Source of the DNA: an uncultured archaeon | Lineage (GTDB): Archaea; Thermoproteota; Bathyarchaeia; Bathyarchaeales; Bathycorpusculaceae | Direction of reading: 5' to 3' | Assembly (NCBI GenBank): GCA_963782915.1 | Contig: CAWALK010000011.1 | Coordinates: 107,929-171,928 of the forward strand | Length of the DNA stretch: 64,000 nt | In this document: positions 23,028 through 62,994 of the stretch, piece after piece | Layout of the letters: the number at the start of each line of letters is the position of its first letter | How positions within the stretch are numbered: position 1 is the stretch's first letter | The notes under the pieces: model-generated | The model's database searches: none | Seen by the model: only the letters and a program-made list of their open reading frames with translations | Told to the model about the DNA's origin: nothing | Program-made: the position numbers and the translations under genes

Positions 23028-24499
23028 TTACGCTCTCGGGATTACTGCCAAGAATGGTTCTGGCTCCATGTTAGCGGTAGCATAAACCGCCAGTGCAATA
23101 CTCCAAAATACGTCGTCGTGTGTACCTTGCGGATGATAGAAGCCAGTATTGCCGTCCCTGCGCAAATCAAATCGTTCCACGTTGAGTTCAGTGCAGATAT
23201 TCGCCTCTGTAAGGTCGTTCCCAGTGGAGCAGGGGATAGAAGAATTGCTTGTTTAGCATACGTTGCTTAAGCAACCCAGCCATCTCACTTTTGCGGGGCA
23301 CACTAAAATTTACACCTTCAGCATTATTGATGCCGGCGTTTTCCATGTCGGCGATGAAGCTGGGACCCTCCCGTGTAAAATCTACCCGTATTTTCTCAAA
23401 GTCGCCCCAGCGGTCCTGCAACGCTTTAAGTAGCCTAAAACAGATGCGTATACCGTGGGTTGCTGGAAAATTTTTAGATGCCGCAAGTAGAGACGGTATC
23501 GTTTTGTTTTTCAACGACTGAGAGGACGCAATAGTCTCTGGTTTGCGCCAAATCCAAGCCCCGCAAAGAATTCACCGCTATGATTCAACCTCGGAGTCGA
23601 ATAATCGCAGTTCTTCGCCGCAGCTTGTCTGAGTGCCGATGCAGGAAGCAATAAGGCTCTGGTTTAGCCAGACATCGTCATCCTCAGCCCATTCGGCATC
23701 CATTTCACGGTGCCAACGTGATAGGTCATCGCCCATCTGAGTCTTAATCCGTTCGATAATGTTGGGTTTGAGTGGTCCGTTGGGGCTTAATGCTTTGGCG
23801 ACTGGTACATGAGAGGTTTTGAAATCAGAGAAATCCTTATGGTTGAAAATTTTGAAGAACACGCTATCGGTGTGCCAGGGTGTGCTGCTGCAGACGAATT
23901 TGCCATCGGTTGTTCCCAGCGTGTAGAGGATGGCGTCGTAGAGTTCTTGGTCGTTTGCTACAAAGTTGAATTCGTCAGCATATACTACATGTAAGCGTGG
24001 GTCCTCGGATTGTTTCGGGGTTGTTTGGGAAAGCTTCAATGCTGCTTCCGTTAGCGAAGTAGATTTGGGTTCGTTGCGGCTTGAAAGCTAATCCCGGCGG
24101 GTAGATTATGGGTGAAGAATGCGATTATGCGATATGATTCGTTTGGTTTGCCGCCAAGAAGGCCCAACGATGCCGATTGCACTATTGGGGTGACTGACTG
24201 CGTACCAGAGCAGCAGGGCGCAGATTATGTAGGTTTTTCCGCTTTGCCGGCACCATCGGGCTGCGGTAAATTGGTTGTTTAGAAATAGTTGGGCGAAGTC
24301 TATTTGGTACTGGATATGGTTGAAAGCCTAAAATGCGCTCAAAAAAAGCGGAGGGGTCACTGCTGAATCCTAATGTCTCCTGCTGAGTGGCTTGTATTAA
24401 GTGATTGTTGCTTTGCTGGAGATTATGCCATCGGGGCAGGATTTGGTTGGGTCGTAATGCCCTGGGTTCTTTCTGCTTTTTCCTTGAGTAGCTTCGCAT
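23028..24499 (-). CDS. terL: Terminase large subunit (multiple indels; start approximate)
   Basis: Walker A AARWCRQSGKT, Walker B VVYADEFN, coupling motif SSTPW, nuclease motifs GLDLAQ and HDDVFWS; ends MEPEPFLAVIPRA. Confidence 0.85.
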
Positions 24500-24887
24500 T
24501 TTGTTCCTCCATTTCTTTTAGTTTGGTTTCGATTTGTCTGTAGTTGATGTAGTCGGTGAGAAGTTCTTTGTAGGTTTTAGCGATGGTTGCTATGGCTTGT
24601 AATCGTTGGACTTCGATTTTGTTTAGTCCTGGTTTAGCAGCGGTTTTTAGGGCGCCTGCAAGCATTTTTAGGGTTTCCTCGACGCTTGGCAGTTGTTTTG
24701 GGAGTGGGATGGAGGAGTCTACGTAGCCTTTTGTTTGGGGTTTTATGTCGAGGCGTTGGCATTTTATGATTATGGCGGCGGGTGTTTTTTGGAGTTTGGC
24801 GGCTATTTCGTCTAGGCTTGTGTTTGCTTCTACGAGTTGTTTTAGTTCGGTTTCTTGTTGGGGGGTCCATTGTTTGCCTTTAGTCAT
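24423..24887 (-). CDS. Probable terminase small subunit (N-terminal HTH, helical core, coiled coil)
   Basis: Immediately upstream of and overlapping terL; MTKGKQWT...LDEIAAKL HTH. Confidence 0.55.
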   Translation of the reverse strand: MTKGKQWTPQQETELKQLVEANTSLDEIAAKLQKTPAAIIIKCQRLDIKPQTKGYVDSSIPLPKQLPSVEETLKMLAGALKTAAKPGLNKIEVQRLQAIATIAKTYKELLTDYINYRQIETKLKEMEEQNAKLLKEKAERTQGITTQPNPAPMA

Positions 24888-24915
24888 GGGTTAATTGCCT
24901 GTAGCAACGCTTATA

Positions 24916-24930
24916 TAACAATTATTGTTA
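24916..24930. promoter_or_regulatory. Palindromic operator candidate between divergent genes
   Basis: TAACAAT-T-ATTGTTA next to a TTATATAA TATA box. Confidence 0.4.
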
Positions 24931-24974
24931 AGTAATTGGCGTAATTAAACAGTGTTTGTTAATGGTGTAACTGT

Positions 24975-25418
24975 ATGTTGGGCAATTCGATGAGAAAGTA
25001 TGTTATGAGCGAAAATAAGAACGGTTACAGTAAAGCCGTGCAAGCCGTCTACAACACCCGAATCAAAAGCTATGCAAAACAAGCCATCCAAGATTTAGCG
25101 CTACTGGCGGAAAAATTACCTGAAGACCAACAAGCCGACATCTTCAACAGCGAAAACATGAAGCCATTATTCAAAGCCATCCTAAAACCGGCTCCGGAAG
25201 AAATTACCCAACTAACTCAAAACAAAGAACTGGCAAAGAAGAAAAGAAACCGTTTACGCCCACTCACCTATGAAATAATTACTTTACTAAATGACTCAAA
25301 CTTGTCATGGTTAATTGCACCCATAGGAGCCAGATATATGACAAAAGAAGGCGGATATTTAGCTCATTTAAAAGCGATTTATTACCGCAGCCTAGACGGC
25401 GGAGACGATGAAGAATAG
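24975..25418 (+). CDS. Hypothetical protein of the element
   Basis: 147-aa ORF, helical, no recognised motif. Confidence 0.55.
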   Translation: MLGNSMRKYVMSENKNGYSKAVQAVYNTRIKSYAKQAIQDLALLAEKLPEDQQADIFNSENMKPLFKAILKPAPEEITQLTQNKELAKKKRNRLRPLTYEIITLLNDSNLSWLIAPIGARYMTKEGGYLAHLKAIYYRSLDGGDDEE

Positions 25419-25556
25419 GCAGGATGGCATCGTTGCAAGTAAGTGGTGGAAGAGAATTGACAGTAGGTACGTACCTACGTCTGGGTGTAAAAAAAGTAAG
25501 CACTCCCTAGACGTTAGAGTGGAGGGTAACTAGGTCTGCGTTCGCAAGAACATCAT

Positions 25557-25961
25557 TTGCCTCTTTTCTTGAATGCTAAAATGCGTTTAGCGCTCATTAA
25601 ACTTCAAGCTGACAAAGAATTGGGACAATCATACGCTGGGCTCTATGCACTCAACGAAGGCTTACATGCCCTAAAGTACCTAAGTGATGAAGACTACCAA
25701 GCTTTCAAAAAACGTTACAGTGATAAACTGGTCAATGATCACCAAAATAATCGAAAATGCGAATTAGACCATCAAGCTCAGAAGGAAATCGAGAGTATGA
25801 CCCGTTACTTTAGCATGGTTATCGACCAATGGCACCTGCATCCAAACAGTGAATGGCGGAGTAAACAACTAAAAAAAGCCAAGGAATACGCAAACCGCAT
25901 ACCGAATGCTAGGGAGGTTTTGGATTTAGAGGAAAATTCACCGGAGATTCCCCATAACTAA
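25557..25961 (+). CDS. Hypothetical protein, possibly DNA-binding
   Basis: 134-aa ORF; N-terminus resembles an RHH-type segment. Confidence 0.5.
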   Translation: MPLFLNAKMRLALIKLQADKELGQSYAGLYALNEGLHALKYLSDEDYQAFKKRYSDKLVNDHQNNRKCELDHQAQKEIESMTRYFSMVIDQWHLHPNSEWRSKQLKKAKEYANRIPNAREVLDLEENSPEIPHN

Positions 25962-25978
25962 ATATCGGCCTGTATAAG

Positions 25979-26194
25979 CTACTCGTCATTTGCCCCTTCG
26001 AATTCAGTGGGGTCTAAGCCTAAATTGGTTGCCCACTGTACATCTGCCAGGGCATCAACGAGTTTTCTTTGGGCATTCTTGTGCAGTCGGCTCACGGTTG
26101 GCGGATTAATGTTTAGTTTACGGGCTATTTTGTAATCGCTCAACCCTTGATTTGCCAACTCAAGAATCCGCCGTTCCCGATCAGTTAAAGCCAT
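25979..26194 (-). CDS. HTH regulator (LuxR/sigma-4-like), divergent from the structural operon
   Basis: LTDRERRILEL..QGLSDYKIARKLNINPPTVSR. Confidence 0.8.
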   Translation of the reverse strand: MALTDRERRILELANQGLSDYKIARKLNINPPTVSRLHKNAQRKLVDALADVQWATNLGLDPTEFEGANDE

Positions 26195-26218
26195 GGCACC
26201 GCTTCCTTTTGGATATAA

Positions 26219-26248
26219 AGGTTATTACTACTTTTGGGCTAATAACCT
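26219..26248. promoter_or_regulatory. Inverted-repeat operator between the HTH gene and the virion operon
   Basis: Perfect 9-bp inverted repeat AGGTTATTA-N12-TAATAACCT directly beside a TATA-like GATATAAA. Confidence 0.55.
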
Positions 26249-26285
26249 ATTTCCGCTTTCCCAGACATACCCATTCCCGATTAAC

Positions 26286-27020
26286 ATGCCAGAGAAAGAA
26301 ACCCAAAACCAAGCAAACCCATGCAGTCGAGGAGTAGAGCACCTCTTGACTGTTCTGCCCTTTAGTGTTCTGGAAAAAATGGCTGACAAACCTTTGAGGA
26401 TTCGGGGCGTAGCCATGACGGCTGGTATGAGCCGCAATCTTAACATCTATACACCTGAAGAGCTGCAAGCTTTCACCGGCAAGCTGGTAAATGCGCCGGT
26501 CTATATTGAGCATGTTTCTGTACCAAACGCCATTGGGAAAGTTACCAAAACCGATTGGGACGGCCATAGTCTCTGGTATGAAGCGGAAATTTATGATGAG
26601 TCAATCGCTGAGAAGATACGTAAGGGTTTAGTCCAGCATGTGAGCGTGGGTGCAGATTATGAAGCCGTCGATTTAGTGGATGGCAAGGTTCCTCATGGAC
26701 TTCATAACGCCGAGTTAAGTTTAGTGGCCGTTCCTGGAATTCCGGAAACTAACGTGCAGGTTTTAGAGAAACTCTCCCAAACAGAAGGCAGACTAACCGA
26801 GGCACAAAAGACCATTGAGGATTTACGCAAACAAGTCCCAGGAGGCGGTTTGCTAAAGAATCCACCAACGATGATAGCGGTTTCTGAAGCTATCAAGATG
26901 GTTGAGGCAGTTCTGCCTTCGCCTATGATTCAAAGAAGTTGGAGTCTTGGGCCTCAACGCATGTGCCAAGAACTCCGCAGAGTAGTCAAACAGCTAGAGC
27001 AGAAAGTAGGAGGCAGATAG
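26286..27020 (+). CDS. Prohead protease with short scaffold region
   Basis: PVYIEH...AIGKV...I.KGLVQHVSVG...ELSLVAVPG assemblin/HK97-type pattern; C-terminal coiled coil. Confidence 0.8.
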   Translation: MPEKETQNQANPCSRGVEHLLTVLPFSVLEKMADKPLRIRGVAMTAGMSRNLNIYTPEELQAFTGKLVNAPVYIEHVSVPNAIGKVTKTDWDGHSLWYEAEIYDESIAEKIRKGLVQHVSVGADYEAVDLVDGKVPHGLHNAELSLVAVPGIPETNVQVLEKLSQTEGRLTEAQKTIEDLRKQVPGGGLLKNPPTMIAVSEAIKMVEAVLPSPMIQRSWSLGPQRMCQELRRVVKQLEQKVGGR

Positions 27021-27104
27021 CTGTGTTTTTGCTCACTTTTGTGGGGAAGAGTACCAAAGGACGAACTTTGGGAAATTCAAGAAAAGAAATCGAATTGATA
27101 TTAA

Positions 27105-27533
27105 ATGACTGATAAAACAGGCAAAACTTGGATGGCTGTAGGAGAAACCGACGATCCGCAAGCGCTCATAGAATCTTTTGAAGCTGAAGCAGCAATCACC
27201 AAAGGCTCACCCGTCTATCTAAGCTCAGATGACAAGGTATCGACTAGCCCAGGCGGAGACGACGCCATAGGCGTAGCCGCCAAAACCGTTGCCATAGGCG
27301 AAATGTGCCCAGTGCTAAAACGTGGAAGAGTCAAAGTCAAAGCAAACGGAGCCATAACACGGGGCAAAGCAGTCTGCAGTGCTGCAAACGGCAAAGTTGC
27401 CCCATTAGTGGACCAACCGGTAGATGAAGGCGGAGCAGCAACCTACACAGTATTTTACAATCGCAAACTTGGAACCGCACTTGAATCAGCAATCGCAGAC
27501 GGCGACTTGATCTTCATAGGTGTGGAGAAGTGA
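27105..27533 (+). CDS. Capsid decoration/cement protein (DUF2190-like)
   Basis: AITKG.PV...AIGVA......GE..PV...G.V.V.A.GAI..G..V...ANGK...LG.ALE. Confidence 0.7.
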   Translation: MTDKTGKTWMAVGETDDPQALIESFEAEAAITKGSPVYLSSDDKVSTSPGGDDAIGVAAKTVAIGEMCPVLKRGRVKVKANGAITRGKAVCSAANGKVAPLVDQPVDEGGAATYTVFYNRKLGTALESAIADGDLIFIGVEK

Positions 27534-28493
27534 TTGCATTGAAGCCAAGACTTTTTGAAGCATTGATGGAAAGACCTAACGACCAACGTGAAGTTTACGA
27601 GAAGCTAAAGCAGAAAACTGAGCATCCCTTCATGAAGCGCTATGTCGCCATGGGCATAAAAGAAAACCTCTTTAGCGATATGACAGGTGCGCTTGGCAGG
27701 ATGCATGATACGCTTGTGCAGGCTGCGTTTCCTGAGTTGATTGGCAGAAACATCATCACAGTCATGCAAACCTCTGAAGCTACGGAGCGATTCCCACTTG
27801 ACACTGATACAATTGCTTACCGTTACTCTGAAGGCACTATAACGAGGCTTAGTGGCAAAAAGAACTCAATGGTAGATATCTACACAAACGTGCTTGCGGA
27901 TTCATCTGAGGAGTGGACTAGAGAGTTTCTTGAGGATGCAACCTGGAACGTCATGGATAACATGATTCAGAAGACTGGCAGAGCTTTAGGCATAAAGGAA
28001 ACCGAAGAGATCATCGCGCTCTATGGTGCAATCCAGGATGCAGATCTGGCTGGCGGTGCTCCTATCGCTGGAGGAAACGCTGTGCTTAGCTGGACAGGGT
28101 TGCTTAGACTGCATGATGCCGTTAGAAGCGAGAACTGGCATCCTACTGTACCTAGCAATCAATGAGACCCAACTCCATCAGTTGCTAAACGACGATAAGT
28201 TTGTTCACGCTCAGTATTTGCCGAGTAGTGAAACCGATATCCAGCAAGGCAGCATAGGCTCAGTGTTGGGTATGCAGGTACAAGCTAGCACTTTGATTCC
28301 CAACGGGACAGCGTATGCAATTGACACTCGAGTTGCTTCTGCAATGCTTCTACGTCGTGACATTACAGTTGAAGACTGGGAAGACATAAAGACCGGCAAA
28401 TACGGCGTTCGAGCAACCACACGGTTTGGAGCGGGTATTCTACGCGCTACAGCTGTTGCCAAAATGACCAACATCAAGACTACCCTAAGCTAA
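27530..28493 (+). CDS. HK97-fold major capsid protein (frameshift near 28150)
   Basis: TREFLEDA, G.VLGMQV..STLIPNGTAY, and G+RATTRFG.GILR..AVAK C-terminus; position in the operon. Confidence 0.85.
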
Positions 28494-28558
28494 AATGATC
28501 GTCAACGATCTAACCACTTTCCCTTTTTTTGGGTTAAAAATGTGAGGTTTATCCTGCT

Positions 28559-29794
28559 ATGAGCAAATTCATCCGAAAAATCAGCGAAATCCTGTCCTTT
28601 ACGCCTGCCTCCGGTGTGGCATCCCCTAAGCAGCGGGTGTTCTTTGACACTTCCTGCATACCCTTAGCAGACGTCTTGAAACTCTACTACCGTGATCCCA
28701 CCTGCAAGAGTAGTGTAGACTTGCTGGCAGCTTCAACGGTTGGCATGGGCTTCTACACTACAGCGGATAAAAAATACGACAAGGCATCCCAAGCTAAAGA
28801 GGTTGTCGACCGGTTCTGTGAGGATGTCAATCTCGATAGCTTGCTAAATGACATGGCAAAGCCGCTGATTGGTTGCGGAAACGATTTCTGGCTAAAACTC
28901 AACCCCGACAAACTAACTGACACTCTGCGCATGCCAATTGACGCCGTCCAACGGATAGGGCTAAGCTCTGTTCCCGACTTAAAGATTCCATATAAAGTCA
29001 CAGGTTACCAGCTTCTAAGCACATATGGCGGCGATACTAGAGCCGAGCTTAAGCCCGAAGCTGTAATTCATTGGCGTTTAAACGGCGATGTCCCCTCCGG
29101 GTTTGGCGTTGGATTGTTGCAGGTTCTCCTGCATTCGTTAACCATTGACACTGACAAGCGTCCCTCGTATGCTTGGATGAAGGCCAAGATAGAGAAGATT
29201 TTGCCAAACATCTTCACTAAATATGCTGGTCCCGATGTCGTTGTGCAGCTTGAAGGGCAAAAAGAAGATACCATCAAAAAATATGAAGCCGCGATTAAGA
29301 ACCGACCGGAAGAGGGGCAGTGGCTTTTTAGCGGCGCCAAATCTGTCGGCGTCTACCCAGTAACCATTGACCCAAGGGCACGCTTCGAATATTATATCGA
29401 CCACATGGTCAACCAATTTTACCTCGGATGCGAAACACCGCTTCCAAGGCTGTTTAGCACTCCAGGCTTCACTGAAGCATCGGCAAGGGCAGCGCTCGAT
29501 TTACAGGACATGCTCATTAAACCAGTCCAGCGGTACATCAAGCGCCAAGTTGAAAAAGAAATCTTCGCTTTCATTGTAGCTCAAAATGGGCTCGATCCCA
29601 CCAAAGCCAAAGTTAGGTTGAATTTTGGCAGTTCAGAAACACCCGAGTTAGTGGCCGCCGACATCATTAAAGCAGCTGAATTGGGGCTGATTCGTGCGGA
29701 GGAGTTCCGTAAGAACGCTGTCAAGTTCGGTTGGGAACTCTGGGATACCCAACCTGAAGCAGCAGTTCAAGGTAAGGAGGTAAAAAAGGAATGA
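28559..29794 (+). CDS. Portal protein
   Basis: 411 aa; Y..DP..KS.VD, GNDFW and EAVIHWR......FGVGLL portal-like motifs. Confidence 0.8.
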   Translation: MSKFIRKISEILSFTPASGVASPKQRVFFDTSCIPLADVLKLYYRDPTCKSSVDLLAASTVGMGFYTTADKKYDKASQAKEVVDRFCEDVNLDSLLNDMAKPLIGCGNDFWLKLNPDKLTDTLRMPIDAVQRIGLSSVPDLKIPYKVTGYQLLSTYGGDTRAELKPEAVIHWRLNGDVPSGFGVGLLQVLLHSLTIDTDKRPSYAWMKAKIEKILPNIFTKYAGPDVVVQLEGQKEDTIKKYEAAIKNRPEEGQWLFSGAKSVGVYPVTIDPRARFEYYIDHMVNQFYLGCETPLPRLFSTPGFTEASARAALDLQDMLIKPVQRYIKRQVEKEIFAFIVAQNGLDPTKAKVRLNFGSSETPELVAADIIKAAELGLIRAEEFRKNAVKFGWELWDTQPEAAVQGKEVKKE

Positions 29795-30138
29795 AGGTAT
29801 CAGCGGAAGACGTTAGAGACACCCTCAACCTAAAAGATTCGGATATTTCTGAGGTTAAAGTTCTGAAGATGATTAAGCGTGCCGAGGTCACTTTAGAGCT
29901 TGAACTCTCCGCTGATATTGACTACCAAAACTGCACCGATTCCCAAAAAGAAGCAATAACGCTCCTGGCTGCCATTTATGCAGTCTGCTACTTGGCTGGC
30001 GGTTCTGCTATCGGTTTGAACTTTAGCGTTGGTGACCTGACCAGTTCCAACTCAGCCTGGCCCAGCTTAACGGTGTTACAAAGCGAATTCGAGCGGGTCC
30101 TTGCCAGTCTCAAAGAAGTCTACGTGGGGAGCGTGTAG
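29791..30138 (+). CDS. Head-tail adaptor (gp6/gp15-like)
   Basis: VSAEDVR...I.RAE...A.YA...SVGDLT helical adaptor pattern, directly after the portal. Confidence 0.6.
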   Translation: MKVSAEDVRDTLNLKDSDISEVKVLKMIKRAEVTLELELSADIDYQNCTDSQKEAITLLAAIYAVCYLAGGSAIGLNFSVGDLTSSNSAWPSLTVLQSEFERVLASLKEVYVGSV

Positions 30139-30140
30139 CC

Positions 30141-31541
30141 ATGGGAACCGTTCCTGAAGCATATTTCCAATTCGTTATGGACTATGCGCCCTATGTCTAT
30201 GTGATAGCGCCTAATACACCGGATCCAGCGTTTGGCAAAGGCGTCCTAGCAGCAAGCTTTGCCCTTGATTTTCTCTGTGAAGCGTATTCAGCCCCGCAGT
30301 TCAAAGATAGACAAGCAGACATCTATGAAAAAATCGAGAGCTTAGCCGATTGGGTACTAACCCAACAATGCACTGATCCTGCAAAGAAGGCTTATGGCGG
30401 GTTCAAAAGCGCCGAGACCAGCACTTACTATTACAGTGTAGATGCTTGCAGAGCCATCCCATCACTTCTAAAAGCCTACGAACTCACAAAAGACAGTGAA
30501 TACTTGGAGGCTGCAAAGCTAGCTGGCGGAACTTTCCTCAAAACCATGCAAGATAAGCAAACATACGGCGGCTTCGCTAGAGCAGTCACAATCCAAGATG
30601 CTTGGCTTTTGCAGATGGATATAGAATGCCTCTATGGACTCATTGGCTTAAACAGGCTAGCCAAAGGTTATCATGAAGGTGATGAAGGTAAGGAATACGC
30701 ATACGATCGTATGATGGATAGGGCAGCGTTTTTTCTTTGGCAAGGCTTTGAGAATCTTTGGCTAACTTTTGACCCTTCAGATGGCAATTGGCACAGAGTG
30801 GGCTTAACTGAAAATGAGGTTTACGATGACCCGTTCGCCTACGCCTTGCTGGGACTGTATGAGTTTGAAGGCTGGAGTGTCAGCTGCCAAAAAGTCTACA
30901 ACGCCCTAAACAACATCAGAGCTAGCGGAAAGTATCCAGCTTATGACCCTGCAATTTGCTGGGCTGGTTACATAGATGTGCTTAATCGATTCTCAGCTTG
31001 CGACTACTACGACGCCGTCACAAGCGGGATCCTTTGGAAAATCCGCCAAAACCACGACAAGCCAAGCTTTAAACTCAGTGTAGAAGTCATCGGCAAACAT
31101 GCAGCTGAATTCATGTATTGGGGCGCCAAACACACAGACTACAGCTATGTTGAAAATAAGCAGGCAATGGCGACCGTTTGCTGGTTAGCCGAGCTTTTCC
31201 TACATTACGAGGAGCCTGTAACTCAGTTTACAAAGATTCTGATGAGTAAAGGGGAAACGGTGACGCTCTATTCTGTTCGAGAAGCCGCTGCAACAGTCAC
31301 TTATGGCGAACCGTTGGATTTGTTAGCCGTTGTTTCCTCACTCAAAGCTGAGCAAGTCATGTTAGAAGCTGGCTACTACCTGAACGACTACTTGGCGTTC
31401 TATACGTTTCTCCCAGTTAGGGTTCATGACAAACTTAGGCGTCAAGGCGAAGACTACGAAATCCAAACAGTAACGCCCTTCACGTTTGCGAATCAACGGT
31501 TCTACTTCAAAAGCATCGCAAGGAGGCTAATCGCAAGTTGA
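30141..31541 (+). CDS. Alpha/alpha-toroid domain fused to a C-terminal head-closure-like domain
   Basis: Helical repeats (ADWVLTQQ...YGGF; LLKAYELTKD.EYLEAAK); the last ~110 aa GETVTL...DKLRRQGEDYEIQTV...YFKSIARR resemble stopper proteins. Confidence 0.55.
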   Translation: MGTVPEAYFQFVMDYAPYVYVIAPNTPDPAFGKGVLAASFALDFLCEAYSAPQFKDRQADIYEKIESLADWVLTQQCTDPAKKAYGGFKSAETSTYYYSVDACRAIPSLLKAYELTKDSEYLEAAKLAGGTFLKTMQDKQTYGGFARAVTIQDAWLLQMDIECLYGLIGLNRLAKGYHEGDEGKEYAYDRMMDRAAFFLWQGFENLWLTFDPSDGNWHRVGLTENEVYDDPFAYALLGLYEFEGWSVSCQKVYNALNNIRASGKYPAYDPAICWAGYIDVLNRFSACDYYDAVTSGILWKIRQNHDKPSFKLSVEVIGKHAAEFMYWGAKHTDYSYVENKQAMATVCWLAELFLHYEEPVTQFTKILMSKGETVTLYSVREAAATVTYGEPLDLLAVVSSLKAEQVMLEAGYYLNDYLAFYTFLPVRVHDKLRRQGEDYEIQTVTPFTFANQRFYFKSIARRLIAS

Positions 31542-32556
31542 GCGAAGTAGAGAACCCAGTCATAACAATTCTGCGCCTAATCGAGTCACGGATAAGAGTC
31601 GTCAAAGATGACGGCGGCTTAGCCAGTGTCCTTTGTTCTCAAGCGAACTATGACCGGGAACTGCTCAAAGACTACGATGCCCAAATAACCGTGTCCAAGA
31701 CCTCTGAGCCTTGCCAAGCGCAGAAACACACCTTAGACGGCAAACTAAGAAGACGCATCTACTCCCTTCGGGCAACCATAGTAACCATTGACAAGCCATT
31801 TGCAGGTGCAGACGTCGGCAGAGTCATGCGAGACAAAGTGCTTGAGCAGCTACTGTTGATTATTCCCGAAAACCGCAACCTACCCTACAGGACATTCTAC
31901 AACTTTTACCCGATTGACTCAACGTCTGCAACTCACAAAGCCTATAGTGCAGTTGCCGCAACCGAGCCTGAGCCATCTAACTCAGCTTGGACAGAACTGT
32001 CAAATCCTGAGTATGCGAACCTTTGGGGAAGCGATGACCTTAGAACCTCTAAAAGCGCAACTGGCAATGGCGAGTTTGCGTTTATGCTATTCCGCTTCAA
32101 AATAGGCTCTAAAGCTGGAGAGAGCCGAAATGAACCCAGAAAACAGTGCTTAAAGCGCGTAATTTTGGCGTTTGAAGGTTTTGGGCTTGCACCACAGGGA
32201 AACGGCGTTACCCTAAAAGTATGGGATAACTTAGCCAGTGCTTGGAGCAATCCACAAACCGGCGTTTTGCGGAACAGACGAAACCCTCACTATCACTCTA
32301 ACGTCAAACCTCACGAACTACGTCAACGATGACGGCTTCCTATACCTGATGGCACGAACAACCAACCCCTCAGATGGGGTTTCGTCTGCCGTTTTGTACT
32401 GCGATTTTGTCCAAGCAACCGTTGACGTATGGGGCATAACATTTTGCGACGTTCACAGTTTCCGAGACGTCGATGTAGTTGATGTTAAGCCGTTTCTCTA
32501 CAAAGAAGAAATCGTCATTGCTGGCTTGGCTCTTCGAGTCAGTTGCCATTTCCTAG
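31538..32556 (+). CDS. Probable tail terminator with inserted beta-rich domain (frameshifted)
   Basis: Lies between the stopper and tail tube genes; ORFs 31538-32332 and 32238-32684 join. Confidence 0.45.
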
Positions 32557-32572
32557 TCACAGGTGAAACAAT

Positions 32573-33437
32573 ATGGTGGACACCTATCACTCAGACCAAG
32601 AAAAATTCTACTACGTTACCGAAGGCTCTTTCGGCGTGGTTCCAGCTAGCCCGGCAATGCTTGGGCACTCCTGCAGCAATCTAGAACCTGACATAAACCC
32701 AAACAACATCCGAGTACCTGGCACAGGCTCAATTGATGTGGTCGCACTTAAGCGTGGATTAAGACAGCCACTTCTGAAAGTCAAGTACCCCATCCCATCG
32801 GATGCACCTATCAACTTTCTCCAGTACGTCAAACAAGAACTCAACGTCAGCCTTTCCCTGCAAGTGCTCTACTACAAAGACCAATTCGCCTTCGCCACCG
32901 ACATCATAAGCCTACTCTACAAGGGCGCCCGATTCAACAAAGCAACCCTAACATGCGACATAGACGGCCTCTTGGAGTGCGAAGCCGAGTTTCCAGCCCA
33001 AGATATAGAAGTCTACAACAGCCAAAATTACAGGCGCTTCATACTCCGAATATGCCGGCGCTGTTTCAGGCAGTGAAAGCTATGTCAAAATCGGCGGCGT
33101 AACTTGCGAGCGTGTTACTTCTTGGAAGCTGCAGATTGACAACTCCTGCAAAGCTGTCCCGGTCATAAGGTCTGTTAATGGGCATTTGGCGAAGTATCTC
33201 ACTTGGGGTAAGCGGCTACTGACTGGAGAACTCAACTTTGAGTTTGAGAGCAAACAAGAAGCCGACGACATCTTAGCCGACACCGAGCAATCCAGCTTAG
33301 AATTCGGGTTAGGCGGCGTCAACAAAGTTAGCGTTGAGCATACCAAATGGGATGACTTTTCATTAAGCGGCAAATCCGAGGACCTGATCTACGCAAAGGT
33401 TCCTTTCACAGCCAGAGGACCGCTCAGCATTTTATAG
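32573..33437 (+). CDS. Tail tube protein (frameshift near 33010)
   Basis: YVTEGSFGVVP N-terminus, beta-rich, GKRLLTGELNFEF; followed by the tail chaperone. Confidence 0.7.
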
Positions 33438-33455
33438 TTACGGAGAAATCAAGAG

Positions 33456-33985
33456 TTGAAAACAGAAAAAGTTGAGATTGATGGCAGATTCGGCGAAGAA
33501 TACAGGGGCACCTATACCTTTGCTGAGATAACGTGGGCTAAACGAAACCGCATCATCCAAAAACACACCAAATACAACAAGCTATCCGGCGACGTTGAAA
33601 GCAGCGATTTCATAGCCATACAAGCGGAAACCATTATGGCTAGCATGCATGGCCAACCCCAAAGCCACCCCATAACGCTGGAAAAGCTGCTGGGCGAAGA
33701 AGACGGTATTCCGATTGAGCTTGGGGAACTTTTCTCTAAAGTAGTCAACAAGCTAAACGGCATGCCACGGGAGGATTTGCGTTTTTTACTAGAGCAGTTA
33801 GACGAGGAAAGCCGCACAGCGCTCTTGTCGAGTTTAGGCTATGTCAAACCTTCGGCTGGACCCCAACCCAACTTGCAAAGCAGCCAGCCCGAACAATCCA
33901 GGAGTTCTGCCACATCTTGAACGTGATGGACGAAATGGCTGAGGAAGAAAAGCGAAAAGCGGAGCGTGAAGCAAAACGGCAGTAG
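33456..33985 (+). CDS. Tail assembly chaperone G (ends 33920) with -1 frameshift product GT (ends 33985)
   Basis: In-frame slippery heptamer T TTT TTA at 33782-33788; the -1 frame reads ...LCQTFGWTPTQLAKQP... Confidence 0.75.
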
Positions 33986-34344
33986 AAGTAACCTGCGACA
34001 TCCAAGGCGTAGAAGAATTCAAAGCAGCTATGCAAAGGTTTGATTCAGGCATGCAGCGTGAGGTTCATAGCTTTTTGGCTAGCTGGGCTGCCGACGTCAA
34101 AGCTGAAGCCATGCGCCTTGTTCCAGTCCGCACAGGTTATCTTCGAAGCACAATCTATGCGAAGGTTCAGCAGTGGGTCGTAGAAGTTGGAGCAGATGCT
34201 GCTTATGCACTATTGGTTGAGTTGGGTACTAAATACATGCAGGCGCATCCTTACCTATATCCAGCAATCCAAGAATACCTGCCCCAACTGGAAACAGTAG
34301 TTATAGCAGCCATTGAGCAAGCCAAAGCGGAGGCTGGTCTATGA
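33976..34344 (+). CDS. HK97 gp10-like tail completion protein
   Basis: PVRTGYLRSTI...YALLVELGTKYMQAHPYLYPA signature; the frame extends upstream to ACG at 33976. Confidence 0.85.
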   Translation, partial: TAVEVTCDIQGVEEFKAAMQRFDSGMQREVHSFLASWAADVKAEAMRLVPVRTGYLRSTIYAKVQQWVVEVGADAAYALLVELGTKYMQAHPYLYPAIQEYLPQLETVVIAAIEQAKAEAGL

Positions 34345-34925
34345 GTTTTCGAGAAATAGCTCTGACCATCCGTGCGGTTAACCGTGCAAGCACCGAATTT
34401 AACAGAATCCAAACCGACGCTGAAGCACTTGCAGCACGGGTCAAAAGTTTAGGCTCAACTCTAGCTGGCTTGGGCGCTACAGGTACCGCTATTGGTTATG
34501 TCGCCAACCAGTTTGGAATACTGAACGATGCCGAAATGAAGGTTTTCAACTCAACCATGATGGTTGTCTCAGTCATGGGTATGTTCCTGCGCACAAGCAC
34601 AGGTTTAGCCGTGGCTCAAAAGGTTTATTCTGCAGCTTGTTGGGTAGCAACTGCAGCTCAAAATGCATTAAACATCAGCTACGGAACCTTCCTCGCACTA
34701 ACAGGAGTCGGAATCGCCGTCATTGTCGCGGCTACCGCTGCCATGGTGTATTTTGCCAGCAGCATGAACAATGCTACGGCTAGCGTGCAGAACTTTAACT
34801 CGACAGCAGCTGAGACGCCTGCACATACGCGAGGTATTCAACGGGCGGGCGAATCAGCAGTGACTTCTGGTTCTCGTAGCGGTAGTTCATCAGATGCTTC
34901 TTTCTATCGCAGAGGAGTGGAATAG
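34341..34925 (+). CDS. Very short tape measure protein (194 aa)
   Basis: Typical N-terminus IALTIRAVNRAS, Ala-rich helices, hydrophobic segments, position after the chaperone. Confidence 0.7.
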   Translation: MSFREIALTIRAVNRASTEFNRIQTDAEALAARVKSLGSTLAGLGATGTAIGYVANQFGILNDAEMKVFNSTMMVVSVMGMFLRTSTGLAVAQKVYSAACWVATAAQNALNISYGTFLALTGVGIAVIVAATAAMVYFASSMNNATASVQNFNSTAAETPAHTRGIQRAGESAVTSGSRSGSSSDASFYRRGVE

Positions 34926-36530
34926 ATGAGCGTTAATCCGCCGGCTATATCGATTGCTTTGGGTTCTGTTGCGGTTCCCCAATCTGACGTTATAGAAGCC
35001 ACTGTGCATTTGGGTGCCACTAAAGAGGTTAGCAGCTGGGAGCTTCGACTTCAAAACTGGAATAGTAAATACAGCCCAAACGGCACCTATCCGCTCAATG
35101 TAGGCCAAGACGGCTACATCTGCATAGGCAGAGACACCAGCGTACCTCAACTCATCACTACAAGAACCGAGAGTATCAAGTTTCAATCAAGACCTGCAGA
35201 GCACTATGTTATTGTGGCTGGGCGATGTTGGGGCGAGAAGCTCTTTCGGCAAACAGTCACTAAAGACTATTCAGGTTCCAAAGGCGAAGACATAGTCAAG
35301 GATATCTTGGATTCTTTTTCAGGACTAAGCCATTTACGTGGCAGCACTGAACTGGTTGAGAACACAGATACAACTTTCACCGACTTCAAAGTGCAAGATA
35401 CTCAAGTTTGGGATATATTGCAAAAAATCGCCCAAGAAAGCGACAAAAATGGCGCCATTGGCTATGACTTTCGTACAGCACCGGAGGGTAAATTCGAGTT
35501 TTTCCCAAGAGCAACCAAAACCAGCCCCGTTACCCTCACAGACAAGATAGAATCCTATGAGTACTGGAAAGAAATAATTGCCCTCAGAAACAAAGTCACA
35601 ATCTTCGGAGCCCAAGACAAAAGCGCACCCTTAAACAAAGTTGACTGGACACAAAGCCTAACCCCAACCATATGTAGTTGGTCAGCAACCGCAGGCGAAA
35701 TCAGCATTGAAAACTCAATGGGCAGCCCCAACAGCATAAAACTACACGTAGAAAACAACTACTTCGGCGGCGCCCTCTTCACTTTAAACCCAACCTATTG
35801 GGTTAACACCAACATGTTTCCTGAACTGCACTTTGCCATCCAAAAAGAAACCTACTTCGACGGCCACTCCATGGTCATCTTGTTCGATACCTCCAACCGC
35901 GCAGCTAGCCGCCTCTATAGTTTTCAATCGCCCGGTAACGGTGGTATAGCTAATCAGTGGACAAGTGAAACATTCAAAGTTGGCGCTCTGAATGCTTCAG
36001 ATTGGTCGGTTGAAGCTGGTTTCGATTGGTCACAGGTAAATCGAGTTGGCTTTTACTGCTATCCAAGTCAGGTGACAGGTTCAGGTAGCTTTTGGATTGA
36101 TAAATTCTACTTTGGCGGCTTACGCTACAGCAGTATCCAGCAAGATGCGGCTAGCCAGGCATCTTATGGGCTTAGGGAGTTTATGGATGTTGATGAAGAG
36201 CTTTGGAGTGACATCGAATGCTCACTTAGAGCACGAGCCATTCTAGCCAATATGAAGGATCCGTTTGAATACATCGCACTCAAGAGCACCGTTATCGATT
36301 ACGGGGTTACACCATTTTTTGCAGCTGATATTGTAGCTATTGCTCTTCCAAATGAGAATGTAAGTGGAAATTTTCGTATTCTAAGCGCCGAATACCACGT
36401 CAAAGCCGAAAGTGGGGAACTAGAAGTTTCATTGGAACTTGGACGTGAGAAGTCGCTTTTGGCAGATTATGTGTACGCTTTGCGGTCCAAGGTGGATCGT
36501 GTTAACAGGTACAAGGTTGCGAGGTTATAG
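34926..36530 (+). CDS. Baseplate hub / tail-tip protein with inserted beta-sandwich
   Basis: L.LQNW..KY, WDILQKIA, G.FEFFPR and SQASYGLRE hub-like motifs. Confidence 0.65.
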   Translation: MSVNPPAISIALGSVAVPQSDVIEATVHLGATKEVSSWELRLQNWNSKYSPNGTYPLNVGQDGYICIGRDTSVPQLITTRTESIKFQSRPAEHYVIVAGRCWGEKLFRQTVTKDYSGSKGEDIVKDILDSFSGLSHLRGSTELVENTDTTFTDFKVQDTQVWDILQKIAQESDKNGAIGYDFRTAPEGKFEFFPRATKTSPVTLTDKIESYEYWKEIIALRNKVTIFGAQDKSAPLNKVDWTQSLTPTICSWSATAGEISIENSMGSPNSIKLHVENNYFGGALFTLNPTYWVNTNMFPELHFAIQKETYFDGHSMVILFDTSNRAASRLYSFQSPGNGGIANQWTSETFKVGALNASDWSVEAGFDWSQVNRVGFYCYPSQVTGSGSFWIDKFYFGGLRYSSIQQDAASQASYGLREFMDVDEELWSDIECSLRARAILANMKDPFEYIALKSTVIDYGVTPFFAADIVAIALPNENVSGNFRILSAEYHVKAESGELEVSLELGREKSLLADYVYALRSKVDRVNRYKVARL

Positions 36531-36534
36531 AACG

Positions 36535-36948
36535 ATGAGTAAACAAATCCTAAAACTATTAGAAAACATAAAACCCGGCGATCTAATCGCCATCGACTGG
36601 TGCGACGCTTCAGTAGGCAAAAGCAGCGGCTCAGGCATGACCATAGATGTCCCAGTGAAAAGTTGGGGCATATTCGTCGGTTTAATCGGCGATAGGGTTA
36701 AGCATATTGTGATTGCTCAGAACAGTTTCCGCTATGCCGACGGCATGTTCGATTTAGACTACACCGCCATCCCTATCGGTTGGGCGTTGGGCGTTACAGT
36801 TTTAGTCAAAGAGCATATTCCCACCGAATCAGCTAGCAGACTTGTTAACAGTTTCATGATGGGCGGACATCGTTCAATGAATCGCTCCAGAACTTTTCGG
36901 AGAGCACTTGCACAGCGGAGGTTGAGCATAGATGGCAGACACTATTAA
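36535..36948 (+). CDS. Small phage hypothetical protein (WxDA family)
   Basis: IAIDWCDAS...SWGIFVG...IVIAQN...TAIPIGW. Confidence 0.6.
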   Translation: MSKQILKLLENIKPGDLIAIDWCDASVGKSSGSGMTIDVPVKSWGIFVGLIGDRVKHIVIAQNSFRYADGMFDLDYTAIPIGWALGVTVLVKEHIPTESASRLVNSFMMGGHRSMNRSRTFRRALAQRRLSIDGRHY

Positions 36949-37174
36949 GCGCGCTTTGACTAGAAGGCGCTTTGAGAGGGGCCGTCTCATCGTTGAGGAA
37001 CCCACTGCTAAGCTTGTGTTGGGTGTAAAATTTGCCATCGGCATGACTGCGTTCATGTCAGCCCTTGAGTTGGCGCACTTAATCATTTTACATTCGTGGA
37101 ATGCTGAAATCTTCGCTTCTATCACCGGACTGAGCGGTACAGTCATTGGGTTGTTTGTGGGGCAAAAAACATGA
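36932..37174 (+). CDS. Small two-TM membrane protein (holin-like position)
   Basis: 80 aa with a basic N-terminus and two hydrophobic helices. Confidence 0.5.
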   Translation: MADTIKRALTRRRFERGRLIVEEPTAKLVLGVKFAIGMTAFMSALELAHLIILHSWNAEIFASITGLSGTVIGLFVGQKT

Positions 37175-37248
37175 TGAAAAGTAATCCATGGCGGGTAGAG
37201 GATGAGAAGATGGAGCCTGAATTAGGTCTAAGAGTTATTCCAAGGTGA
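37171..37248 (+). pseudogene. 25-aa TerS-N/TerL-C fusion remnant (deletion scar)
   Basis: Reads MMKSNPWRVEDEK-MEPELGLRVIPR; the last 12 aa match the TerL end MEPEPFLAVIPR at 9 of 12 positions. Confidence 0.6.
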
Positions 37249-38735
37249 CAAAAATGACCAGAAGACGAAATGAACCCTTCCGCATAACCCAGTTCCGAAG
37301 AATCTACAACAGAGAAGAAGGAAAATTTACCTTCAACATAAGCTATGAAACCCACACCAAAATAACGCCTAGGAGCCTTGTTGTGGCTGAAGCGTTTGGG
37401 TTAGGCATCGATGAAGCCCAGCGGTTCAAGGTTTTGGATGCTGAACTAAAGATTGGACCCAAAGACATAACGTATATCACAGGGGATTCGGGAAGCGGAA
37501 AATCCGTTTTGCTGCGGGCAATCAGGGCAGATTTAGGCGATGAAGCCATTGATTTGACAGAGGTTGCAGTGGACCCGGACAAGCCTTTAATTGAAACTGT
37601 CGGCGCCACCGTCGAGCAAGCCTTAGAACTCCTGAGTAAGGTAGGCTTAAACGATGCTTTCCTGTTTTTACGCTCTTACAGCCAACTCAGCGACGGACAA
37701 AAATACCGCTACAGAATCGCCAAAATGATTGAAAGTAAAGCCAAATTTTTTCTGTGCGATGAATTTTGTGCTTGCCTTGATCGAGACACTGCCAAAATAA
37801 TCGCCTACAATCTGCAGAAAATCGCACGGCAGCAGGGCAAAGCAGTCATAGCTGCCACAACCCACAGCGACTTACAAGAAGACCTTAAACCCAGCGTACT
37901 TGTGCGTAAGCGGTTTGGCGAAGAAATCCACATCGACTACTACCCAAACACCCCAGCAGCCGAATGCAGCTTAACCAAAGAAATGAAAATAGAGCCGGGA
38001 ACAAAGGAAGACTGGAAAAAACTAAGCCCTTTCCACTATAGAGGCCATGGCATTTCGGTCCCTCGAAAAATATTCAAAATGACAAGGGGTGATGAGCTCT
38101 GCGGCGTCATCGTCTATACTTACCCGCCTCCAGCATGCTACGGACGACGACTTGTGCTACCAAGAATGACAATGCAAGAAATCAACCAAAAACTAAGCAC
38201 AATAAACCGCATAGTAATTCACCCCAAATACAGAACTATAGGTCTCGGAGAGAAAATAATCCGTGAAACGCTTCCGCAAGTCGGCACACCAAACGTTGAG
38301 TTGATGGCTGTAATGGCAAAATATTCACCTTTTGCCGAGAAAGCAGGGATGCAAAGAGTGGTTGAACAGCAGTCAGTTGAAAGTGTTAAAACTTTAACGC
38401 AGACACTTCTAGCGGCTGGGATTCAATTTGCAGCTTCTTGGCAGTCAGCACTATGTAGAATCAAAACTCCAAAACCTAACTGAGGAACAAATAATGGAAC
38501 TCAAGACTGCCTTTATGGCAAACAAGCATCCACGATTCAAAAAAGAGGTAGCCAGCAGACCGACATAACCCATATGGAAAAACATCCGATTACCTGACAT
38601 ACGTGCAAAACGGCTGACAACTCGAGAATTGGCAGGTTGATTAAGATTCTTGCAATGCTATCCCAAACAAAAGTTTACCTGTTTTGGAAAAATGATAACG
38701 GATACGAACTGTCAAGAGACGTGAGTAAGGACTAA
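37245..38735 (+). CDS. ABC-type ATPase fused to a GNAT (Mom-like) acyltransferase (frameshifts near the 3' end)
   Basis: GDSGSGKS, LSDGQKYR, CDEF and ATTH motifs, then FHYR...INRIVIHPKYRTIGLG (GNAT motif A). Confidence 0.8.
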
Positions 38736-41084: not shown

Positions 41085-41933
41085 TTGAGAAGCATGGCGT
41101 GGAAAGAAAATATACTAAGTAGCATAAAAGAGGCGTTCCACGATAAAGTTTTCAGTACTAAAGATGTCTTGGCTTTATGTAATAATTACTCAAATGGATC
41201 TTTGTACCGGGTTTTGCATGATTTGGTAGAAAGTGAGAAGTTAGAGCGATTAGGTAGGGGTACATATAAAGTAAAGACCAATCGAATTGCAAGCAAAGAA
41301 TTCGGAGATAGATTAACAATTTCTGACCACTTGACCGTTAAACTCATTCCAGGGTCACCAACAATAGCGAAAAAGATCCTAGAAGAAAAAGGAATTGAGT
41401 TTATGATAACTGGAATGCCCGTATTTTTTAGTCATATCCATTATTTACCAAGACGTTTGATCATTCTTATTTACGTCATAAAAGGATCTGGAGAAAATGC
41501 GGTTTTTGCGCTTCGAGAAGCAGGTTGGAAAGCACTATTAGACCCAACTTTTAGTGAGATTAATGTAATTTTAGAAACCACAACTGATAGGGATCTTTTC
41601 GTTATCCGGGAATTCTCTGAGTTAATCGGTAATTGTAACGGCTTTGCGAATGTTGAACGAGCTTTAGTTGATTTGTACTTTGAAACAACAAGAGGTAAAA
41701 TCCCTTCCTCTAAAGAAGAACTTGCTAGAATTTTATTTGATGTTTTCAGAGATGAACCTATAAGTTATAGTAGGCTAAAGGAATTTGCTTACAGACGTGG
41801 AATCGGATCTGAAATCAAAGCGGTAATCAACTTTTTGGACCCTCATGTTGATGGCAGTCATGGACCCTTGCACGTACCAGAAAGCAGAGGCATAGAGTTT
41901 CTAAACCTTCTAAAAAAGCTAAGTTGGAGATAA
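41085..41933 (+). CDS. Type IV TA antitoxin, AbiEi-like
   Basis: N-terminal wHTH (LYRVLHDLV...LERLGRGTY) and C-terminal ERALVDL. Confidence 0.75.
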   Translation: MRSMAWKENILSSIKEAFHDKVFSTKDVLALCNNYSNGSLYRVLHDLVESEKLERLGRGTYKVKTNRIASKEFGDRLTISDHLTVKLIPGSPTIAKKILEEKGIEFMITGMPVFFSHIHYLPRRLIILIYVIKGSGENAVFALREAGWKALLDPTFSEINVILETTTDRDLFVIREFSELIGNCNGFANVERALVDLYFETTRGKIPSSKEELARILFDVFRDEPISYSRLKEFAYRRGIGSEIKAVINFLDPHVDGSHGPLHVPESRGIEFLNLLKKLSWR

Positions 41934-41934
41934 T

Positions 41935-43080: not shown

Positions 43081-43257
43081 GAAAAAAATGAATGTGATAT
43101 CTCCAATTGGTTTGACTTAAAATCCCAGTGGTCAACATATATCCGAAAAAGTACGGCTCCTTTTTTTATTCTTTTTCCACTCAACGGACCAAAAACTAAA
43201 ATCAGGATTATACAATATGTTTTAGCGAGGGCTACTTGCCTTTAGGATTGATCGTAT

Positions 43258-43938: not shown

Positions 43939-43957
43939 AATATTAATTCTAAAAGGT

Positions 43958-44689: not shown

Positions 44690-44939
44690 CCCAGATAGAA
44701 TCTTTTTGGGCAGTTTATGTATTAATAATTTGCTTGTTCACTCTTTTGAGGACAAGAATTGGTAGTTTGGATTAATGGCCCTTTTTATCGGTAACCCGCA
44801 TTTAGTAGCGATTTTTAGTAAAATATGTCTGCTGGTTTTTTCGAGTTTCATTCACTTGCTTGTTTTTTCCCTTTTTATTTTACAAGTATGGTTGCATATG
44901 AGACGAATGTTTTAAAAATCAAGCAAGCATAGTAGAAGC

Positions 44940-46406: not shown

Positions 46407-46416
46407 TTACGGTCAG

Positions 46417-49724: not shown

Positions 49725-49728
49725 TAAC

Positions 49729-50040: not shown

Positions 50041-50104
50041 TCGATAATTGGTCATGCAGTTTGGCTATAAAGCTTATAATTAAACTCTGATATCTATACA
50101 AAGC

Positions 50105-51136: not shown

Positions 51137-51148
51137 ATGTTTTCATCA

Positions 51149-58674: not shown

Positions 58675-58685
58675 AGGGTCCCTTA

Positions 58686-62928: not shown

Positions 62929-62994
62929 CAACCCCACACGTTCCGAATAAACCTCTGTGTAGAAAGTAAACCAAAAACGGGCGGGGATTGTCCG

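Follow-up and report, generated by a model that had tools for sequence, protein, structure and literature searches.

Gene transfer agents (GTAs) of the RcGTA type, from Alphaproteobacteria, are compact, siphovirus-like head-tail gene clusters in which the tape measure is short and replication genes are lacking. Kunpengvirus and Fuxivirus are tailed viruses of the archaeal class Bathyarchaeia and, according to a section of PMC10848311, Kunpengvirus encodes an integrase. A section of PMC11705971 describes BATPV1, a provirus of 33,358 bp on contig JAAKEZ010000002 that carries pPIWI and 'CpcE' (HEAT) genes. Here we analyzed a 64-kb stretch of DNA (the window) from an uncultured member of the Bathyarchaeia (GCA_963782915.1), namely the final 64 kb of contig CAWALK010000011.1 (C11), which contains a head-tail gene module. 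A first-pass annotation had read positions 23028 to 38735 as either a GTA-like domesticated particle or a short-tailed virus that depends on host replication and ferries defense islands. Our data make it likely that 23.0-63.1 kb of the window is occupied by one stranded, integrated copy of a temperate tailed virus resembling BATPV1 (Caudoviricetes, with an HK97-fold capsid). Judged by sequence homology, the window element is a member of an already published provirus family.

All coordinates are positions of the window unless a contig is named. The source genome (G000) comprises 3.28 Mb in 25 contigs with a GC content of 0.45, and its assignment to Bathyarchaeia agrees with the record titles of related genomes. 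Genomes carry G labels and fetched homologous loci or contigs carry L labels; L037 is a locus on an IMG/VR contig and L078 is the locus on JAAKEZ010000002. The family was surveyed by searching for a 466-amino-acid (aa) marker protein of the module in 41 related genomes (24 in the genus) and in IMG/VR contigs. Family names were assigned via Pfam, PHROG (phrog_*), PADLOC, and Rfam, together with similarity to clusters of a language-model atlas. Among public sequencing runs, the best DNA run matched 0.23 of the words, there were no reads from the source sample, and no RNA run was listed as containing window sequence. Of 30 bins of the window, runs X1, X3, X6, and X2 covered 23, 17, 11, and 6, respectively.

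We found that the head-tail gene block is real and occupies the + strand at 26.2-37.2 kb, with a divergent terminase at 23.0-24.9 kb on the - strand, as seen from the open reading frame (ORF) listing and family scans. Its features are as follows.

23034..24490, - strand: large terminase subunit (TerL), with nine frame-breaking indels when aligned to the intact TerL of G015
24423..24887, - strand: small terminase-like protein (terS), 154 aa (phrog_323, 1.7e-8)
24975..25961, + strand: two small ORFs, 147 and 134 aa, with no family match
26193..27020, + strand: putative prohead protease/scaffold, 275 aa (phrog_7015, 1.8e-4, weak)
27105..27533, + strand: cement/decoration protein, 142 aa (Phage_cement_2, 1.6e-9; phrog_673, 4.6e-20)
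27530..28493, + strand: major capsid protein of the HK97 fold, with its frame broken by an extra base at 28151
28559..29794, + strand: putative portal protein, 411 aa (atlas similarity 0.97)
29791..30138, + strand: 115-aa protein, adaptor by position only, conserved in relatives, with no family match
30141..31541, + strand: 466-aa alpha/alpha-toroid protein (weak C5-epim_C match, 1.7e-4; atlas)
31538..32560, + strand: 337-aa structural gene, split by extra bases at 32270 and 32521
32573..33437, + strand: tail tube protein, split into two frames by an extra base at 33017
33456..33920, + strand: 154-aa protein, tail assembly chaperone by position only, conserved, with no family match
34030..34344, + strand: HK97 gp10-like tail completion/Neck1 protein (HK97-gp10_like, 5.6e-6; phrog_5, 2e-16)
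34341..34925, + strand: candidate tape measure protein, 194 aa (position and composition)
34926..36530, + strand: tail hub/baseplate hub, 534 aa (YQBQ-like, 3.3e-6; phrog_400, 1.2e-5)
36535..37174, + strand: pair of short conserved genes that end the tail region, 137 and 80 aa (identity to L037, 92 and 96%)
37245..38687, + strand: ABC-ATPase/GNAT gene, the last core gene of the family (ABC_tran, 1.3e-11; phrog_293, 8e-36)

The BATPV1 contig contains a perfect 22-nucleotide (nt) direct repeat with copies 33,278 bp apart, and the right copy overlaps the 3' end of a tRNA-Pro gene. The BATPV1 integrase (422 aa; Phage_integrase, 4e-20) lies beside this right repeat, and the gap between the ABC gene and the integrase, which is inside these attachment (att) repeats, holds Piwi, methylase, UvrD-PD-(D/E)XK, and PIN genes. 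The window resembles BATPV1 in its collinear structural proteins, which are 68-93% identical and in the same order except for terS-terL, and in an ABC/GNAT gene that follows the morphogenesis block (the terminase in BATPV1). Both also have defense cargo with a UvrD-type helicase and a nuclease (PD-(D/E)XK in BATPV1, Cas4-like in the window), and their tyrosine integrases are homologous and adjoin a tRNA on the right-hand side. The window differs from BATPV1 in that it has no att direct repeats, attL included, no full-length integrase (the core is missing), and neither the winged helix-turn-helix (wHTH) protein nor p186 of the left arm; terS-terL is moved and inverted, and the window terS is only ~41% identical. 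The cargo differs as well (AbiE and BrxL in the window versus pPIWI and a HEAT-repeat protein in BATPV1), as does the target tRNA. Because the right-hand layout matches that of BATPV1, the element probably spans ~23.0-63.1 kb, with the right arm as part of the same element, and its end differs from the 38735 of the first-pass annotation.

Two features mark the probable right end.

62392..62928, + strand: tyrosine integrase remnant, internally deleted (six-frame match; alignment to the BATPV1 integrase)
62994..63069, - strand: tRNA-like sequence, the probable integration target (Rfam tRNA, 38.7 bits, model positions 7-64)

The window copy is a defective member of the BATPV1-like family, not an intact one, because integrase residues ~33-268 are missing. 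The remnant aligns only to residues ~9-32 and 269-422 of the 422-aa BATPV1 integrase (50-59% identical), a loss of ~236 internal residues or ~700 nt, and covers positions 99-168 of the 172-position Phage_integrase model compared to 4-168 in BATPV1. No repeat of at least 15 nt of the tRNA-side sequence was found in the window or on C11. The degraded integrase and missing att duplicate that the first-pass annotation reported are thus both borne out. By tblastn, the window contains no homologue of the wHTH gene (wHTH316), of p186, or of an L037-type integrase gene; wHTH and p186 were found on contigs C1, C18, and C19 of the same genome. In most relatives terS lies on the + strand after the tail genes; in the window terS-terL is inverted at the left end of the element, and a 36-aa terS vestige remains at 37117-37224, the usual terS-terL place in most relatives. 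G015, the nearest structural twin, has the same relocated terS-terL with an intact TerL. We consider the window copy stranded because the integrase is deleted, the att duplicate is absent, the left-arm genes are gone, and terS-terL is relocated, and such a copy would presumably be unable to excise.

In the arrangement that we propose for the family, the left side would comprise attL, the wHTH gene (~316 aa), p186, a variable cargo slot, and a 16-gene morphogenesis block, while the right side would comprise the ABC-ATPase/GNAT gene, a second defense-rich cargo slot, the tyrosine integrase, and attR in a tRNA gene. Stranding of the window copy would have involved loss of the integrase core, of an att duplicate, and of wHTH and p186, together with movement of terS-terL to the left and its inversion. 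The particle genes would be whole once the single-base insertions of the assembly are discounted.

We asked whether the copy might instead be a still-active provirus, with the integrase deletion and the missing att site as assembly artefacts or with true ends beyond C11. The assembly is error-prone, the window stops at the contig end (C11 ends 930 bp beyond the tRNA-like sequence), and the rearranged layout that G015 shares, with its intact TerL, may be viable. However, a ~700-nt loss is unlike the 1-nt insertion errors seen elsewhere, C11 has no second copy of the tRNA-side sequence, and the left-arm genes are absent from the window, which leaves an active provirus improbable. No circular or excision joints, which the first-pass annotation had suggested seeking in reads, were seen in the partly covered public runs, where coverage is too thin to weigh either way; the att duplicate itself was not found on C11.

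Several observations weigh against our interpretation of the element and its ends. ARAGORN finds no tRNA at 62994-63069, where on reading the sequence a paired 5' acceptor strand is lacking. The defense island at 41-62 kb could be separate and use the same tRNA site, and the integrase deletion, which lies in an error-prone assembly, may itself be an artefact. Among relatives, att repeats were verified in just one of five examined; G014a, G014b, and G015 yielded none, and in G040 the sole match spanned 13 nt (E 0.044). Terminal repeats were present in none of the 21 IMG/VR contigs available at full length, so no free circular genome was seen. A tRNA scan of nine further loci found none.

We next considered how the module is distributed. 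Of the 41 related genomes, 13 contain the 466-aa marker, as do 7 of the 24 that belong to the genus; it also occurs on 40 of 42 candidate IMG/VR stretches and at 21 genome loci, almost all from metagenome-assembled genomes (MAGs) labelled Bathyarchaeia or Bathyarchaeota. G005 and G014 each contain four to five full-length places with identities of 49-84%, copies within one genome are as divergent as copies between genomes, and G000 itself has a second copy on contig C18. Collinear homologues of all module genes were found in family loci. The order is protease, cement, capsid, portal, a variable insert of 0-3.7 kb, and the 115-aa, 466-aa, and 337-aa genes, followed by tube, 154-aa, gp10-like, tape measure, hub, 137-aa, 80-aa, terS, TerL, and ABC-ATPase/GNAT (~480-500 aa) genes, and the morphogenesis block amounts to 16 genes in ~13.2 kb (L037 5787-19022). 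Upstream of the module is a left arm with the ~316-aa wHTH protein (12 loci), p186 (18 loci), and cargo that includes AbiJ, OLD-type nuclease, methylase, GHKL ATPases, and Kelch, HEAT, and radical-SAM proteins. Defense cargo occurs in two places, between the left arm and the protease gene and between the ABC/GNAT gene and the integrase. G014a and G040 also have an integrase of the BATPV1 type, 3-5 kb past the end of the module; the one in G014a adjoins tRNA-Leu. A crude test scored 565 of 613 family gene copies as unbroken. Start-codon artefacts account for most of the rest, and L088 shows genuine degradation. The synteny survey of Bathyarchaeia proposed in the first-pass annotation finds a module that is collinear but multi-copy, patchy, and set in differing flanks.

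These data bear on whether the element is a GTA-like domesticated particle, that is, a stranded cluster that the host retains because it packages host DNA and passes it on. The copy lacks a working integrase, att site, or putative left-arm regulator, yet its particle genes look whole; the RcGTA cluster is about the same size as the core block here; and, likened by description only, RcGTA-type GTAs share a compact head-tail cluster, a short tape measure, and the lack of replication genes with the window. However, GTAs are single, vertically inherited, and without integrase or att, whereas the BATPV1-like family is multi-copy, patchy, and integrase-bearing, with within-genome copies as divergent as between-genome copies, and the window keeps an integrase remnant. 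The window element has no flanking DNA in common with G015 or with the other relatives. Integrating members likewise have a short tape measure and lack replication genes, and the low ratios of nonsynonymous to synonymous substitution rates (dN/dS) given below span divergence from viral relatives. We therefore consider a GTA-like particle highly improbable. BATPV1 has a full integrase, a tRNA target, and att repeats that are intact. Such repeats are a mark by which the first-pass annotation would have recognized ordinary proviruses among homologous loci; the replication genes it named alongside them were not recognized. Its other proposal, a host-replication-dependent, short-tailed, defense-ferrying virus, largely holds as a description of the family, with the window copy itself stranded.

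As assembled, four genes of the head-tail set are frame-broken. The breaks in the 11-kb module are four window-specific 1-nt insertions (28151, 32270, 32521, and 33017), and DNA alignment to G015 revealed nine indels of lengths not divisible by three within 1.45 kb of TerL (23199-24314), eight of them insertions. Across the capsid, tube, 337-aa, and TerL genes, 12 of 13 breaks are insertions of 1-2 nt, 11 of them single-base. As a control, we examined 27 host genes outside the window with a close homologue (at least 60% identity and at least 85% coverage) among the fetched loci. Nine of these were broken, with 10 frame switches in 31.5 kb (0.32 per kb), a background rate that predicts 3.5 insertions in the module compared to the 4 observed. 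A succinate-dehydrogenase-like host gene contains eight indels not divisible by three, seven of them 1-nt insertions, and the host MCM gene is matched in two frames. Split host genes in the window encode UDP-glucose dehydrogenase, an epimerase, two DUF3131 proteins, UvrD, and BrxL; examples of split genes lie at C15:302400-304200, at C22:257760-258423, and, in the window, at 14085-15276, 16284-17113, 51895-53906, and 58686-60735. Because the same type of insertion splits host genes, MCM included, the frame breaks in the window are most likely assembly or consensus errors. Our initial reading, pseudogenization of the capsid gene and TerL, was dropped after these host-gene controls. Furthermore, a 521-nt X1 contig aligns to 27934-28455 (522 nt) with zero mismatches and one gap across the capsid break, and two sets of X1 contigs over TerL, spanning three indel sites and one, lack exactly three letters and one letter, respectively.

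The TerL gene is the part of this argument that could be read the other way. Its indel density is ~20 times the mean host rate, one host gene alone has a TerL-like density, and the X1 contigs that lack the extra TerL letters are only 90-94% identical and may come from another strain or copy. Real decay of TerL is possible. If the breaks in the capsid, tube, and 337-aa genes, and above all in TerL, were real, the element would be a decayed relic that cannot make particles. Consistent with this, the copy also lacks the integrase core, att site, and left-arm genes, and one clearly degraded relative is known (L088/G001, with eight stops in the 466-aa gene). Against it, once indels are discounted TerL in the G015 register shows 80% aa identity, one stop, and 177 synonymous to 94 nonsynonymous codon differences. 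The insertion bias of the breaks resembles that in the host MCM and succinate-dehydrogenase-like genes, and prokaryotic gene decay is usually deletion-biased, the opposite of what is found here. The zero-mismatch contig over the capsid break also counts against decay. We regard a relic as unlikely; true pseudogenization of the structural genes, on which the first-pass annotation had made its own reading depend, is probably not what the breaks represent. Since spurious single-base insertions occur about once in every 3 kb of coding sequence, pseudogene calls in G000 need read-level proof.

For nine genes without frame breaks, dN/dS relative to L037 and G015 is 0.02-0.17, although dS is close to saturation or past it. 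These low values, from a check that the first-pass annotation had proposed, indicate long-term constraint in the lineage and are uninformative on the time since stranding, because they span the whole divergence from viral relatives. One further idea is that stranded copies keep the particle block as something useful, either as a GTA-like shuttle or as a reservoir of structural genes for co-resident intact proviruses, through recombination or in trans. We consider this very unlikely; if true, multi-copy Bathyarchaeia genomes would have been caught while domesticating a tailed virus.

By itself, the window is one more defective copy of a printed provirus family and matters little. The family, on the other hand, offers a model of a compact tailed archaeal virus with a ~13 kb particle block, a ~182-aa tape measure, and no recognizable replication genes. 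Its two cargo slots carry defense systems between Bathyarchaeia genomes, and the domestication of archaeal tailed viruses could naturally be studied in genomes that contain four or five diverged copies, of which some are stranded.

We next examined the support for each module gene. The first-pass annotation had called a complete set of head-tail genes; genes do lie at the places it gave, with the capsid, 337-aa, tube, and TerL genes frame-broken as assembled. Family matches back its decoration protein, capsid, tube, gp10, and hub, and both unusual features of its gene order, a portal after the capsid gene (relatives are alike) and a divergent terminase, are real. Its protease has a weak profile match and is the conserved opening gene of the module in relatives (263-371 aa). 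The names 'stopper' and 'terminator' found no support and, like 'adaptor' and 'chaperone', are positional guesses.

Window TerL aligns in three frames to residues 6-483 of the intact 484-aa G015 TerL, and a fragment at 23.6-24.0 kb (- strand) matches phrog_2; intact TerL of relatives (482-484 aa) matches Terminase_6N (1.7e-15) and phrog_2 (7e-37). The 154-aa small terminase-like protein has 70% identity with the product of the gene upstream of TerL in G015. For the capsid, residues 1-207 and 208-320 of the G015 protein align to two different window frames, the C-terminal part in the window matches phrog_267 (8e-12), and the intact protein of relatives is 320 aa with a Phage_capsid match. The intact 287-aa tube homologue matches Phage_tube_2 (4e-15) and phrog_290 (1e-16). 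The 337-aa gene is one ORF of 336-339 aa in L033, L037, L039, and L081 and is read in three frames in the window. The ABC-ATPase/GNAT gene encodes 479-502 aa in four relatives, with Acetyltransf_10 in L037, and the window copy is broken near its 3' end. Of the two small ORFs beside the terminase, the 147-aa ORF is 88% identical to G015 L017:5284-5706 and the 134-aa ORF has its sole match in L053.

The 411-aa product has an atlas feature score of 0.97 to the Portal_Mu, Phage_portal, and SPP1_portal clusters and no Pfam, PHROG, or PDB sequence match, so its putative portal identity comes from language-model similarity. An AlphaFold2 (AF2) model built from a 17-sequence alignment reached a mean predicted local distance difference test (pLDDT) score of 51.5, unfit for searching. 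The 466-aa protein is closest in the atlas to its own viral clusters (0.97), followed by GH88/GH127/GH47-like clusters (~0.80). It has a conserved C-terminal part, and its gene lies among neck and tail genes. A neck role for this gene was backed by no test; glycoside-hydrolase-like clusters were found instead, and the protein may be a virion-borne enzyme that acts against the host envelope. Profile searches with the portal, 466-aa, and 194-aa alignments against PDB sequences gave nothing below E 0.18.

The candidate tape measure gene lies directly upstream of the hub gene, in a conserved order of tube, 154-aa gene, gp10-like gene, 194-aa gene, and hub. Judged from its sequence, the 194-aa protein is helical at the N-terminus, and both a hydrophobic stretch and a C-terminal motif are conserved. 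The mini tape measure of the first-pass annotation agrees with this position and with a short length throughout the family (137-233 aa, median 182, n=57 ORFs), and searches for a tape-measure profile gave no Pfam, PHROG, or PDB-profile match for it. Tail length is ~0.15 nm per tape-measure residue, and the tape measure length would predict a tail of ~27-30 nm. Since the short tape measure is also found in integrating members, it is no mark of domestication or of a GTA. According to a section of a review (PMC9022992), tail length is set by the tape measure, and the RcGTA tube is of siphovirus type.

Six-frame searches of the genome for MCM, Cdc6_C, Prim-Pol, and DNA_pol_B gave no match on C11; they recovered host replication gene copies elsewhere, except Prim-Pol, which was found nowhere in the genome. 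Likewise, no polymerase, primase, MCM, or Orc was seen among 45 scanned flank proteins of relatives or in the BATPV1 right arm. The first-pass description of the locus as replication-less is therefore apt for these genes, and a UvrD-type helicase and a Cas4-like nuclease lie at 51.1-53.9 kb. The absence of recognizable replication genes is a trait of an integrating family, not a mark of domestication, and the family presumably replicates with host machinery.

The probable right arm of the element contains the following features.

38294..40957: inserted cassette in the ABC/GNAT gene, flanked by a ~394-nt direct repeat (38294-38687, 40567-40957)
38747-40042, - strand: AAA_14/DUF4143 ATPase in the cassette (PADLOC PDC-S01, 4e-103)
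41085..61601: right-arm cargo of AbiEi/AbiEii, PLD nuclease, Cas4-like nuclease and UvrD helicase, BrxA-like protein, and BrxL (family matches)

The cassette looks mobile. Its repeat families D1-D4 are 88-96% identical by segment, in an X3 contig 38549 is joined directly to 40908, so that the cassette is missing (the uninterrupted form), and in run X2 the cassette ATPase gene occurs at a depth of 10-16 with other flanks. The Cas4-like nuclease and UvrD-type helicase are at 51149-53906, and the GC content of the right arm is 0.36-0.41 compared to 0.45 for the genome. A k-mer scan of G000 found no CRISPR arrays and hence no spacers for a comparison of foreignness.

Other viruses and proviruses of this host class show more distant likeness. 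Kunpengvirus and Fuxivirus, likened by description only from the section cited above, share with the window the host class and a head-tailed Caudoviricetes form. Larger relatives (the G014c/d type, also on G000 C18) have homologous head-tail genes that are 45-75% identical and an ABC and GNAT pair adjoining the terminase. They differ in that ABC, GNAT, terS, and TerL lie upstream of the head genes, that the hub has 984 aa, and that they encode a 595-aa DUF3631-like protein, which may be a replication helicase. The integrase at their far end is of another type. The example on C18, at ~3.8-42 kb (about 40 kb), is a second, larger provirus in G000 that is 90-94% nt identical to G014c in large blocks; it contains head-tail genes, the DUF3631-like protein of 595 aa, and an integrase that is recovered as five pieces. 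A different tyrosine integrase of 449 aa lies left of the wHTH gene at L037:14-1363, and this L037-type integrase closes the larger proviruses in G014c/d; its placement suggests tandem integration of two element types.

For the wHTH protein, an AF2 model (pLDDT 67.4) shows a MarR-like wHTH, an unmatched domain, and a coiled coil. In a Foldseek search against PDB, matches were confined to the N-terminal MarR/ArsR-type wHTH, and none reached E <= 0.001. The protein has 547 homologues, and the best 120 of the 547, where named, are hypothetical proteins or transcriptional regulators.

Further observations concern the spread and remains of the family. A further cargo slot lies inside the structural block, between the portal and the 115-aa gene; it is empty in the window (29794/29791) and measures up to ~4.8 kb in relatives, for example at L033:6992-9408 and L027:14803-19259, with a ParA-like ATPase in G014d. 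An 83% identical 466-aa protein occurs at L075 (JBLNCY010000027.1) in a MAG labelled Methanocella, a label for which a binning error is a likelier explanation than a second class of hosts. The family is also represented by solitary terS-TerL pairs at G000 C12:230332-232444 and C13:4679-6395; the C12 pair adjoins a scrap of the ABC gene and has no head-tail genes. C12 also carries a 97% identical 76-nt copy of the tRNA-like sequence, within C12:384868-393263. Three partial repeats of 42, 28, and 19 nt lie at distances of 2.6-8.3 kb from it, an arrangement that looks like a stack of integrations. Directly left of the element in the window, 20963-22887 holds two PIN and MazE-type toxin-antitoxin pairs.

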